Sequence record: SRR31156797_826
Strand: one strand, 5' to 3'
Length of the DNA: 20,000 nucleotides
Both the position numbers and the translations under genes were made by a program. Under the pieces are notes generated by a model, which saw nothing but the letters and a program-made list of their open reading frames with translations, was not told the DNA's origin and ran no database searches. Below, one piece after another: positions 1 through 15,128 of the stretch. Within the stretch, counting starts at the first letter, position 1. Every line of letters begins with the position of its first letter.

Positions 1-635
1 TTATTGTCAAACCCTGCTATACCTGACGAGTTAAGCATACTCGTATGGCATTTCAGTTTATTCTTATCTACAAACTGCTTAAATTCTTTAATCTGCTGGT
101 CGGTAAATTCCTTATCTGAATCAGATGACGACAGATGGCTCATCACATGCACAGGTCTGAGGCGTGGAAACATGGTGGTAAACTCGTACCAGCTCATGTC
201 AGTATTAAAGCCGAGCCTGTTCATTCCAGTGTTGATTTTAACTGATACGTCCGCCACAAGATCGTGTTTAGCTAAAAATTCGTTATATCTAGCTGCTGTG
301 TCCGTATCATTTATTGTAAGTACGATATTGTGCGTAAACGCCTCTTCATAAAATAGTTCGTCGATATAGCCGAGGCAGAAAACTGTTATAGAGCTGCCTA
401 GCTGTTCACGGAGGATAATCCCCTCTAAAACCGTTGCTACTGCGAATTTCGTACAGTTGCACGTCTCATAAGCGTAGGTGCTTATCTCTAGCTCGCCGTG
501 GCTGTATGCATCAGCTTTGACTATGGCTATAACATCACTGCCGGATAGTTTTCTGGCAACCTCGAGATTATGCCCGAAGGCTTTGAGGTTAATCTCAGCA
601 TATGTAGGTCTGAGTGCTTTAAGCTTACTGTTCAT
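1..635 (-). CDS. alr: Alanine racemase, 5' part (runs off the left edge of the window)
   Basis: Not in the ORF track. Manual translation from ATG at 635 gives MNSKLKALRPTYAEINL...IVKADAYSHG...VKINTGMNRLGF...HVMSHLSSSD...MLNSSG, which contains the PLP-lysine motif and the TGMNRLG motif of Alr. The start overlaps the prfB end by 11 bp. Confidence 0.93.
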   Translation of the reverse strand, partial: MNSKLKALRPTYAEINLKAFGHNLEVARKLSGSDVIAIVKADAYSHGELEISTYAYETCNCTKFAVATVLEGIILREQLGSSITVFCLGYIDELFYEEAFTHNIVLTINDTDTAARYNEFLAKHDLVADVSVKINTGMNRLGFNTDMSWYEFTTMFPRLRPVHVMSHLSSSDSDKEFTDQQIKEFKQFVDKNKLKCHTSMLNSSGIAGFDN

Positions 636-10194: not shown

Positions 10195-10647
10195 ATGTCT
10201 GACTCTATCGCTGTAAATGCCTCCATAGATGCTGTTAAACTTTTCAAAGCGGGTTACCACTGCTCAGAGGCGGTTTTACTAGCTTTCGAAAAACATACGG
10301 AGAAGGAATTCTCTGACGACTGCAAAAGAGGAATGTCAGCTTTTGTTGAAGGTGTTGGCACATCGGGATGTATATGCGGCGCACTCGCTGGAGGAGTTTT
10401 TGTTCTAAGCACTATGGGCGGACGACTCGACCCTAAGGAGAAAACAACCCATCTCGAAAAGGTTGTTAAAGAGCTCCACGATAGCTTTAGGGAAGAATTC
10501 AAATCAGCCTGTTGCAGGGTTATAAAAAAGAACAGCTCAAAGGTTTTCGGTATCGGAAAATACAATTCCTGTCATAAAACAGTAGATTTCGTCTCAATGA
10601 AGATAGTTGAACTCGCTCAGCGTGAAGGCTGGATCGCCAACGACTAG
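10195..10647 (+). CDS. C-GCAxxG-C-C family putative redox-active protein
   Basis: YHCSEAV, CICGALAGG, SACCRVI and SCHK give the cysteine pattern diagnostic of the family. Confidence 0.88.
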   Translation: MSDSIAVNASIDAVKLFKAGYHCSEAVLLAFEKHTEKEFSDDCKRGMSAFVEGVGTSGCICGALAGGVFVLSTMGGRLDPKEKTTHLEKVVKELHDSFREEFKSACCRVIKKNSSKVFGIGKYNSCHKTVDFVSMKIVELAQREGWIAND

Positions 10648-10649
10648 GG

Positions 10650-10883
10650 CTTATCACAATACTGTAAATGTAGTTTGAACTACCAGGTTTTACGGCTCAC
10701 TTTGTTAGCCTGATATTACTATCTATAGGCGCCAATCACAATGTTGCGCAAAGTTTTAAATGTCTATATCTCATCTTTTTTAGAAATGATTAATCCTTCT
10801 TAATATAGCGAGCGACAAGCTGGAGCGTATAGGCTTATACCATCAGACTATTTCACGACTTAGTGCTATGCCAGTCCTGCAAG
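10650..10883 (+). repeat. Second, degenerate copy of the MITE-like element (motif A 10650-10715, motif B 10810-10883)
   Basis: Same A...B order as 6865-7153. Begins 2 nt after a TAG stop and ends GTGCTATGCCAGTCCTGCAAG, a decayed terminal inverted repeat. Confidence 0.65.
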
Positions 10884-10886
10884 GAC

Positions 10887-11048
10887 AAAAAAATCCCGGC
10901 AACATGCTTTAAGGGGGGAGGAGGGATAAAGCATAGAGATTGCCGGGCAAAAGTCCTTAGTTATTTACCGATTCTATTATTCTATATTTTAAAAAGAGTA
11001 CTGTTATGCAATTAATAAACAATAAAGTTTTAAATCTGAGTTTTCCTA
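10887..11048 (-). ncRNA. Candidate small RNA with a C-rich anti-SD hairpin loop
   Basis: Lies between a consensus promoter (11055-11082) and a 3' hairpin plus T7: CCCGGCAA..ATGCTTTA-[TCCCTCCTCCCCCCT]-TAAAGCAT.TTGCCGGG-ATTTTTTT. No ORF with an RBS. Confidence 0.6.
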
Positions 11049-11054
11049 CTACTA

Positions 11055-11082
11055 ATTATAGTAGTTCAAAAGATGATGTCAA
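11055..11082 (-). promoter_or_regulatory. Consensus sigma70 promoter with no downstream CDS
   Basis: Minus strand reads TTGACA-N16-TATAAT, immediately after the cimA terminator. Confidence 0.75.
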
Positions 11083-11086
11083 GGAT

Positions 11087-11115
11087 AAAAAAAGCCGCCC
11101 TGAGTAGAGCGGCTT
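11087..11115 (-). terminator. Intrinsic terminator of the hom-apgM-lysC-cimA operon
   Basis: AAGCCGCTC-TACTCA-GGGCGGC-TTTTTTT, starting 8 nt after the cimA stop. Confidence 0.9.
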
Positions 11116-11123
11116 ATCGTTAG

Positions 11124-12710
11124 CTAGTTTACTTTTTCTTTATCTTTCAAAAGTTTATATTCTATCGAGTCCATCAATGCCTGATATGAGGCATCAACAA
11201 TATTTGTTGCAACCCCCACTGTGCCCCACATAGAGTCCGAATCTTTCGATTCTATAAGAACCCTTGTTAAAGCCTCAGTTCCGGTTCCCGCTGTAAGGAT
11301 TCTCACCTTATAGTCAACGAGTTTCATGTCGTCGAGATTAGGGTAAAACTTAAGAAGAGCTTTTCTGATAGCGAAGTCGATAGCATTCACAGGACCGTTA
11401 CCAGTCGCTGCTGTGTGCTCTTTTTCACCATTAACTTCAAGCATTACAGTCGCCTCAGCGAGTGGATCCTCACCGCTTGACCTCTTCTCATCGAGAACTC
11501 TATAGCTCATTGAGTCGAAGAAAGGTGTGAAGGTTCCCATGGTTTTACGCATAAGTAGTTCAAAAGAAGCTTCTGCACCTTCGTACTGGAAGCCTTTGTT
11601 TTCAAGCTCTTTAAGACGCTCAACAACAGCGTTAACCTTAGGGTCGCTGCTGTCTACATCAAGACCGAAGTCTTTAGCCTTATATATAAGGTTAGACTTA
11701 CCGGAGAGGTCAGAAAGGAGAACTCTCTGTCTGTTACCGACAAGTTCCGGCTCGATGTGCTCATATGTGCTGGAGTTCTTCATAATAGCGCTAACGTGCA
11801 CCCCGCCCTTGTGTGCGAACGCAGAACGTCCGACGTAAGGCTGGTGAATGTTATGCTTAAGGTTTCCAAGCTCATTTATGTATCTTGATACTGTTCTTAA
11901 ACTTTTAAGTTTTTCAGCCGGTACACAGTCGTAACCGTATTTAAGCTGAAGGTTAGGAATTACAGACATGATATTTGCGTTACCGCATCTCTCGCCGTAC
12001 CCATTGATAGTACCTTGAACTTGTGTGATACCGTTGCGCACAGCTATAATTGAGTTAGCAACAGCACAGTCACCGTCGTTATGGCAGTGGATACCTAGTG
12101 GATACTCACCAGTAACTTCCTTCTTAACCTCTTGAATGATGCTTGCGATCTCCTCTGGCATAGTACCGCCGTTAGTGTCGCAGAGGATGAGGCAGTCAGC
12201 CTTAGCATCCATAGCAGCTTTCAGGGTTTTAAGAGCATACTCTTTGTTCGCCTTATAGCCGTCAAAGAAGTGCTCAGCATCATAGAAAGCTCTGTCCACC
12301 TTAGTTTTAAGGTATGAGAGAGAGTCGTTTATAAGCTCAAGATTCTGATCAAGCTCGATTTTAAGGGCTTCAGTAACGTGAAGATCCCACGTCTTACCAA
12401 AGATGGTGAGATTAGGAACTTCAACCTCAAGGAGTGCCTGAATGTTCTCATCGTTGTCACAAGTTCTTTTAGCACGCCTTGTGCTTCCGAAAGCGGCGAT
12501 ATTGTCATCAGGTACAGACGATTCCTTCACAGCTTTGAAAAAGCCGATGTCCCTTGGGTTAGAGCCTGGCCATCCACCTTCGATATATCTGACACCGAAA
12601 TCATAAAGTGACTCAGCTATCTTAACTTTATCTTTGATAGTAAAATTTACGTCTTCCGACTGAGTACCATCTCTGAGCGTAGTGTCGTAAATCTCTACTC
12701 TTTTTGACAT
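11124..12710 (-). CDS. cimA: Citramalate synthase (Geobacter-type, DRE-TIM fold with LeuA-like regulatory domain)
   Basis: [39 protein letters not shown] and HKGGVH motifs. Confidence 0.92.
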
Positions 12711-13961: not shown

Positions 13962-15128
13962 CTAACCGTTTATAACGGCGCTTTTAAGAAAAAATTCCGC
14001 GATCTTGTATCCGTCCTCTATAAAGAAGGTCGGTTTCATAAATTCGTCATAGGTCTGATTTTCATCAGGGTTCACACCGCTTCCGAATATTATTGCAGGT
14101 ACAGGCTCTGCAACGTGTGTGCGGAGCTTTACAGGTGTCGGGTGGTCAGGGGAAACGAGTATCCTGAAATCACCATATTTCTTCATCCCTTCGAGTATGA
14201 TAGGGATCATTCTGCTATCGATATTCTCAACAGCTTCTATCTTAGTTTCGATAACGCCCATATGACCAGCCTCGTCAGCCGCCTCTACATGGAGAAAGAC
14301 GTAATCTACATCTTCGAAAGCCTTAACAGCATACTCAGCCTTACCTTCGAAATTAGTGTCTATAAATCCGGTTGCACCCGGAACAGTAAGAACATCCATT
14401 CCGCCAAAGTTGCCTATCCCTCTTATGAGGTCAACAGCAGCAACAACAGAACCGTCCATACCGTAAAGGTCTTTGAAAAGAGGCATAGAAGGACGTTTCC
14501 CTTCGCCCCAGAACCATATACCGTTCGCACGGGCATAATCGCCACCAGCAAAAACAGCCTTCGCACGCTCCATAACATCAATCAGCTTATCAGCACCCTT
14601 CCCTTTCGGGAGATGCTCTTTAGCATTTTGCCCCATGATGTCGTGCGGTGCGGTAGTCGTAAGGTCAAAGTCGACATTACGAAGTATCATAAGGTTTCTG
14701 AAACCGAGCCCCTTATGGAACTCGACACCTTCAGCCTTGAACATCTCATTAAGAGCGTCCACAGCCTTAGATGCGGTTTCGTTATCTATATGGTGAGCGG
14801 CATTATCTTCCATTATGTCACCGTCAAAAGTGACGAGATTACATCTGAAAGACATATCATTTTCGCCAAGCTCTATGCCGGAACTGCCAGCCTCAAGCGG
14901 GCTTCTGCCGGAGTAATACTTAGTCGGGTCGTAGCCTAGCATAGAGAGGTTACATATATCACTTCCGGGGTAGTAACCGTCCGGAGTGGTTTTGATGAAT
15001 CCGCCGACACCATTTTTAGCCATATAGTCCAGATTAGGAGTATTGGCGTGTTGCATAATAGTTTTTCCGCCGAGTTCATCTATCTTCAGGTCGCTCATTC
15101 CATCTGTGAGCAATACCAGATATTTCAT
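13962..15128 (-). CDS. apgM: ApgM-type cofactor-independent phosphoglycerate mutase family protein (proposed homoserine kinase subfamily)
   Basis: DGMSD, PGSDICN, GRSPLEA, EAADEAGH, PDHPTP..RTH. Located between hom and lysC. Confidence 0.88.
   Translation of the reverse strand: MKYLVLLTDGMSDLKIDELGGKTIMQHANTPNLDYMAKNGVGGFIKTTPDGYYPGSDICNLSMLGYDPTKYYSGRSPLEAGSSGIELGENDMSFRCNLVTFDGDIMEDNAAHHIDNETASKAVDALNEMFKAEGVEFHKGLGFRNLMILRNVDFDLTTTAPHDIMGQNAKEHLPKGKGADKLIDVMERAKAVFAGGDYARANGIWFWGEGKRPSMPLFKDLYGMDGSVVAAVDLIRGIGNFGGMDVLTVPGATGFIDTNFEGKAEYAVKAFEDVDYVFLHVEAADEAGHMGVIETKIEAVENIDSRMIPIILEGMKKYGDFRILVSPDHPTPVKLRTHVAEPVPAIIFGSGVNPDENQTYDEFMKPTFFIEDGYKIAEFFLKSAVING

Follow-up and report, generated by a model that had tools for sequence, protein, structure and literature searches.

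A candidate small RNA gene of Deferribacterota with a conserved anti-Shine-Dalgarno-like terminator loop

The cimA locus and its downstream hairpin

The window, a stretch of 20,000 nucleotides, carries on its minus strand a hom/apgM-like/lysC/cimA operon. The cimA gene (11124-12710, minus strand) is recognized by the TIGR00977 model with 773.9 bits, and the operon ends at an intrinsic terminator (11115-11092, minus strand) that is built from a 10-bp stem with six G-C pairs and a T-run. The cimA sequence is 89% identical to that of a Denitrovibrio MAG, 84% to that of Deferribacteraceae UBA6793, and 83% to that of Seleniivibrio woodruffii, and the window is therefore placed in the phylum Deferribacterota. 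The gene between hom and lysC (13962-15128, minus strand) matches models of cofactor-independent phosphoglycerate mutases and with 449.1 bits barely exceeds the 446.3 bits required by TIGR02535 (“proposed homoserine kinase”); a homoserine kinase would suit its position in the hom-lysC-cimA operon. A scan of the window for tRNA and tmRNA genes returned none.

Directly after the operon terminator, which separates it from cimA, lies a perfect promoter sequence on the minus strand (P1, 11082-11055). It consists of a −35 box TTGACA (11082-11077), a 16-nt spacer, and a −10 box TATAAT (11060-11055), matches the consensus at 12 of 12 positions, and has a predicted transcription start at ~11048. Between 9500 and 12500, P1 is the sole perfect site; the number of promoter-like sites in this region is not enriched by itself (3, compared to a mean of 5.8 in shuffles). 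P1 has no coding sequence to drive, because the next gene, a member of the C_GCAxxG_C_C family (10195-10647, plus strand), is convergent and located 240 nt away. The first-pass annotation had described both the consensus promoter and its lack of a coding sequence, and both descriptions hold. A weaker alternative promoter, P2 (10979-11007, minus strand; ATAACA-N17-TAGAAT, 9/12), is located closer to the hairpin described below. Two transcript lengths are predicted from the sequence, ~160 nt from P1 or ~85 nt from P2, since the distance between promoter and stem varies among relatives and P2 is present in the window. The shorter form would have a leader whose length resembles that of many relatives.

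The leader of the long form (10948-11047, minus strand) is A/U-rich, ~100 nt long, and poorly conserved, and no credible ORF was found in it. A coding reading of the hairpin itself was rejected: two minus-strand ORFs of 22 and 20 amino acids run over it, and the ATG in the inner stem is missing in other clades. An inverted repeat, ACTACTA-N4-TAGTAGT (11048-11065; 7-nt arms, 100% matching), overlaps the −10 box of P1; a regulator of the RNA might use it as its operator. It is kept in one relative (G028), occurs with one mismatch in a second (G027), and is missing from a third (G001). Its genome-wide frequency equals that of the control, and a search for a regulon found none.

The hairpin takes on a two-tier architecture (10947-10895, minus strand) that is supported by inverted repeats, folding, and covariation. 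In the outer helix, 10947-10940 pairs with 10902-10895 (CCCGGCAA/UUGCCGGG), which appears in the DNA as the inverted repeat CCCGGCAA/TTGCCGGG at 10895-10902 and 10940-10947. The inner helix is formed by 10934-10927 and 10911-10904 (AUGCUUUA/UAAAGCAU) and corresponds to the inverted repeat ATGCTTTA/TAAAGCAT at 10904-10911 and 10927-10934. It closes a 15-nt apical loop, UCCCUCCUCCCCCCU (10926-10912, minus strand), that is unpaired in both the minimum free energy and the centroid structure and is the presumed seed. A U7 tract (10893-10887, minus strand) completes a Rho-independent terminator with an expected RNA 3′ end near 10888. The loop and the U7 run had both been pointed out in the first-pass annotation and lie where it had seen them. 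Of the three nested inverted repeats that it had listed, all are present in the DNA, but the outermost, AAGGAC/GTCCTT (10881-10886 and 10953-10958), is probably irrelevant because it is located beyond the U-tract and is not retained in relatives. The 67-nt hairpin folds with −22.9 kcal/mol compared to −9.5 ± 2.1 kcal/mol for shuffled sequences (z −6.4; matched by none of 200 shuffles); over all 181 nt, the stability does not exceed that of shuffles (z −1.0).

Occurrence and covariation in Deferribacterota

The hairpin is also found downstream of cimA in the Denitrovibrio MAG, Deferribacteraceae UBA6793, and Seleniivibrio woodruffii. In these three relatives, the inner stem and the loop are identical to those of the window, and the outer stem carries compensatory changes from CAA/UUG to CUA/UAG or UUA/UAA. 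At the cimA site of a relative with 65% identity, the hairpin is missing. The 15-mer of the loop occurs in one copy in each of three related genomes, and its reversed control does not occur. BLAST searches followed by a covariance model (R1) were run over 68 genomes of the phylum. The model yields exactly one strong match (E ≤ 7.9e-10) in each of 34 genomes, and its six remaining matches are weak (E ≥ 8e-4); the window hairpin itself scores 89.4 bits (E 6.4e-22). The first-pass annotation had raised the possibility that the hairpin is part of a multicopy repeat without a promoter. Since each of the 34 carrier genomes holds one strong match, this possibility fails, and a REP-like element is rejected on the same count.

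Twenty stretches of metagenome contigs were picked up in a pattern scan; nine are family members (66.9-91.2 bits), and 11 are unrelated. The family member on contigs L189 (1173-1242, plus strand) and L191 (1197-1266, minus strand) shows a C-run of C8 versus C6 in its loop; the length of the seed homopolymer therefore varies in nature.

No Rfam family matches the window at the gathering score. When the threshold is relaxed to E ≤ 10 over 10600-11200, nine matches appear that are all far under their thresholds. The majority sit at the terminator of cimA, and the hairpin is touched by a single one, sau-13 (E 7.9, plus strand). Literature searches found no paper on this RNA and no small RNA described for Deferribacterota, which agrees with the earlier designation of the element as undescribed. 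With 35 genomic and nine metagenomic sequences and a working covariance model, the element is a ready-made and well-delimited candidate that could serve in annotating genomes and in experimental work on cultured relatives.

Covariation was analyzed in an alignment of 35 sequences (29 distinct) that were fitted to the covariance model. In this alignment, 90.7% of the cells are paired, and 6 of the 16 pairs change on both sides, in 27 cells. The covariation score of 0.175 exceeds that of shuffled alignments (0.090 ± 0.009, none of 500 reaching it) and that of alignments with slid partners (≤0.063). RNAalifold, which makes its own structure prediction, arrives at the outer helix with its 8 pairs and at a core of 4 pairs in the inner one; compensatory changes are seen in 4 of these 12 pairs. 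Conservation of hairpin and loop and covariation of the stem were the comparative checks that the first-pass annotation had proposed, and both come out in its favor: the hairpin lies downstream of cimA in three close relatives, it occurs next to one gene or another in 34 of the 68 genomes searched, and both helices carry compensatory changes. The 3′ flank is conserved as well. In 25 distinct aligned sequences, the stem is followed by an invariant A and five invariant T, and the sixth T is nearly so. In the loop, the core CCUCCCC is present in 35 of 35 aligned sequences and the longer stretch CCCUCCUCCCC in 31 of 35.

The C-rich loop, its possible targets, and a second gene with the same seed

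The loop UCCCUCCUCCCCCCU includes CCUCC, which is the core of the 16S anti-Shine-Dalgarno (anti-SD) sequence. The 16S 3′ end of the relatives is GGAUCACCUCCUUU with the canonical CCUCC; the anti-SD core thus occurs two times in the exposed loop, which is complementary to ribosome-binding sites of the GGAGG type. The exposed, anti-SD-like C-rich loop that was proposed from the window alone is supported by a loop that is predicted to be unpaired, an invariant core, and the match of CCUCC to the 16S tail. The loop would be the selected part of the RNA, as its core is invariant while the stems covary and the same seed is found in a second gene.

The first-pass annotation had also drawn attention to an exact complement of the loop at lysC in the adjacent operon. 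The 8-nt match is there: lysC does have AGGAGGGA (13954-13947) as its ribosome-binding site. The link is not specific, however, and lysC was rejected as a dedicated target: the match shrinks to AAGGAGGA in two relatives, another gene of the window pairs better, and in other clades the RNA gene lies away from lysC-cimA. Among the in silico duplexes between the loop and the ribosome-binding sites of 18 genes in the window, the best is formed with an ABC ATPase gene (−17.7 kcal/mol), and lysC reaches −15.4 kcal/mol; the loop duplexes within the window are unremarkable.

Searches for targets in relatives were carried out at several levels of stringency. Exact 11-nt complements of the seed are rare, inconsistent, and located at unrelated places, and complements with one mismatch are as frequent in five relatives as those of the reversed control. 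A wobble-tolerant 10-mer, GGGRGGRGGG, was searched in five genomes, and 20 of the 21 sites outside the sRNA gene were examined; here the reversed control is uninformative because the pattern reads identically backwards. Comparable genes in different genomes never shared one of the 20 sites. A single site did recur, the antisense of a second sRNA-like gene, which was found in this way, as the search repeatedly matched one locus. Two G10 tracts were observed: one in the place of the ribosome-binding site of a G027 gene whose product has a lipoprotein-type signal peptide (L215:~600-630, minus strand) and one in the leader of a 61-aa ORF in G018 (L205:~590-630, minus strand). Both are homopolymeric G-repeats like the targets of RepG, a small RNA of Helicobacter pylori.

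The second gene carries the same seed CCCUCCUCCCC in a different architecture. It consists of a TTGACA-N16/17 promoter, a leader of 7-35 nt, CCCUCCUCCCCCCUCCUUAAAAUAUAU, and a GC-rich terminator hairpin with U6, and it has no Rfam match. It is located at L220:1440-1580 (plus strand), at L140:1320-1465 (plus strand) and L141:1300-1435 (plus strand), and also on L221-L230, L233-L236, L200, L206, L208, and L210. BLAST detects the gene in 17 of 68 genomes, and two further instances were recognized by eye. These 19 genomes coincide exactly with those 19 of the 34 carriers in which the loop of the first sRNA is of the CCCCUC type. The other 15 carriers are window-like and have no second gene; the loops of their first sRNA, as that of the window, contain the longer C6 version. 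In two genomes, the second gene is located ~110 nt from the first in convergent orientation.

As the same seed is found on two different scaffolds, the C-rich stretch is pointed to as the functional part, and this sharing is the best available argument from sequence for such a role. A broader proposal can be built on it, which is put forward tentatively and is on balance doubtful: Deferribacterota may keep one anti-SD-like seed of 11-14 nt (CCCUCCUCCCC) on two unrelated scaffolds, a terminator-loop sRNA and a 5′-seed sRNA, with the seed having moved between them, and the pair might act throughout the phylum as a regulator, in competition with the 16S tail for a class of mRNAs with strong SD sequences or G-tracts. 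If so, the two-scaffold seed would be a global device for tuning translation rather than a single-target sRNA.

Both Hfq and CsrA are encoded in 5/5 relatives tested. In G001, G010, G021, G027, and G033, a canonical Hfq (open frame of 74-90 aa) is accompanied by a frame of 171-200 aa that contains two consecutive matches to the Hfq domain.

Proposed function and alternative explanations

The element looks like a real, uncatalogued sRNA gene that is restricted to the phylum and belongs to a well-known functional kind. It combines features of a trans-encoded sRNA gene, namely its own promoter and Rho-independent terminator, an intergenic position, the absence of an ORF, and covariation that preserves the structure. 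Judged from these sequence features, it is very probably an independent RNA gene, and an sRNA-type gene with an exposed, conserved anti-SD-like loop is supported. The full reading, a base-pairing regulator with its seed in the loop, is given a probability of about two in three. In this reading, a free-standing minus-strand gene would be transcribed from a sigma-70-type promoter, from P1 (~11048) as an RNA of ~160 nt or possibly from P2 as one of ~85 nt. Transcription would end at the Rho-independent terminator near 10888, and the terminator hairpin would at the same time be a working part of the RNA. With its loop UCCCUCCUCCCCCCU as the seed, the RNA may pair with mRNAs at G-rich stretches, primarily at SD regions (GGAGG and flanking G). 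The pairing would block ribosome binding, alter mRNA stability, or both, and Hfq may assist by binding at the U-tail. Since the seed is conserved, target discovery should be straightforward once a transcriptome exists.

RsaE/RoxS of Firmicutes is a trans-acting sRNA whose C-rich loops pair with G-rich or SD regions. A similar mode of action is reported for the 6C sRNA of Actinobacteria and sX13 of Xanthomonas. All of these RNAs differ from the window element in having two or more C-rich loops and in belonging to other phyla, and none of their Rfam models matches here.

By analogy, the window RNA would work most like RepG of H. pylori, in which a C/U-rich terminator loop is the seed that pairs with a G-repeat in an mRNA leader (PMC8295292). 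The window element likewise holds a C/U-rich, unpaired loop in a Rho-independent terminator hairpin. It differs from RepG in its phylum and in the exact anti-SD core CCUCC of its loop; no Rfam 15 family matches it.

In the cuckoo RNAs of Alphaproteobacteria (RSs0680/CcsR, ar14-type), a loop motif, CCUCCUCCC, is read as an anti-SD mimic and is repeated in each of two to four adjacent hairpins (PMC4615179). The window loop UCCCUCCUCCCCCCU includes exactly this 9-mer. Cuckoo RNAs often occur in several copies per genome, whereas the window RNA has one hairpin with one motif and one copy per genome, and its leader contains no second C-rich loop. Neither ar14 nor the related Rfam models match the window element at E ≤ 10 or at the gathering score, and a literature search for the 9-mer CCUCCUCCC gave cuckoo-related and unrelated eukaryotic papers among the matches listed. 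Together with its seed-sharing sibling, the element would add a further independent case to the recurring design of a C-rich, anti-SD-like seed loop.

An RNA that is directed at a protein or at the ribosome instead of mRNAs would explain part of the conservation. The invariant C-rich loop and the stem base would then titrate or recruit a protein or mimic the 16S 3′ tail. The five G-C pairs at the stem base, CCCGG/CCGGG, are invariant in the 29 distinct sequences, as is the A and U-run that follows, which is beyond the needs of pairing and hints at an additional constraint. The target searches gave no conserved mRNA site, and the relatives encode Hfq, the tandem two-Hfq-domain frame, and CsrA as conceivable partners. 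However, the scan of flanking ORFs revealed no candidate protein partner next to the gene at any locus, and the second sRNA shares the single-stranded C-rich stretch alone and not the stem. A nucleic-acid seed therefore fits better than a structured protein site, and the protein- or ribosome-directed function is considered unlikely.

The GC-rich stem and the U7 tract would also be expected from a well-conserved intrinsic terminator or a 3′-UTR element of the upstream gene that has no function in trans. Some relatives have no separate terminator between cimA and the hairpin: the promoter comes next after the stop codon of cimA, and in these genomes the hairpin therefore terminates the upstream mRNA as well. 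Of the 32 loci with an upstream ORF, 31 have the nearest one on the same strand. In the window, by contrast, cimA has its own terminator, which is followed by a perfect promoter, and the preservation of a 15-nt loop throughout a phylum, in single copy and with a changing host gene, is not a property of ordinary terminators. Promoters are enriched upstream of the hairpin: on the RNA strand, a site with at least 10 of 12 matches is present within 140 nt at 23 of 35 loci, compared to 4/35 in the reverse complement of the same stretch and 1/35 in a downstream control. Several of the remaining loci have sites of the TTGCAA or TTGCAT type that are missed by the filters of the scan. Between the −10 box and the stem lie 10 to 110 nt, depending on the locus, and 107 nt in the window, and in the four closest sequences the promoter and the hairpin are conserved with a leader that is not alignable. 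The same seed moreover occurs in the second RNA, which has its own promoter. Host genes were surveyed by scanning 41 of 64 flanking ORFs. The upstream gene is cimA at those window-like loci that were scanned, and one further clade shares this arrangement. In other clades, a glycosyltransferase gene, panD, or a 4HBT thioesterase gene is located upstream, the last with an NlpC/P60-SPOR gene downstream, and a HAD hydrolase gene and others also occur as neighbors. As the flanking genes differ by clade, the hairpin belongs to an independent RNA gene and not to a cimA or lysC element, and a terminator or 3′-UTR role by itself is quite improbable.

A cis function would make the hairpin a leader or attenuator of a following same-strand gene or a cis-antisense regulator of a convergent C_GCAxxG_C_C gene. 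In two clades, a same-strand gene begins 2-21 nt past the U-run: in five loci an NlpC/P60-SPOR gene, 7-21 nt after the hairpin, and in two loci a hemerythrin gene at a spacing of 2-8 nt. Seven window-like loci have a convergent ORF of 148-157 aa as the nearest one downstream, with its end 1-5 nt away from the hairpin; one of these seven ORFs was scanned and belongs to the C_GCAxxG_C_C family. Yet no single downstream gene is common to the clades, and that of the window is convergent and 240 nt off. The general function can therefore not be in cis, and the cis explanation is very unlikely; a trans-acting RNA with a loop seed is preferred.

That the functional transcript is instead the opposite, G-rich strand, whose hairpin loop AAGGGGGGAGGAGGGA would serve as a CsrA-type decoy through its several GGA motifs (the recognition element of CsrA when placed in such a loop), is hardly credible even with CsrA encoded in the relatives, as no U-run follows the hairpin on that strand, eight G-U cells of the alignment would turn into A-C mismatches so that only the C-rich strand fits, and the promoters are located on the C-rich side.
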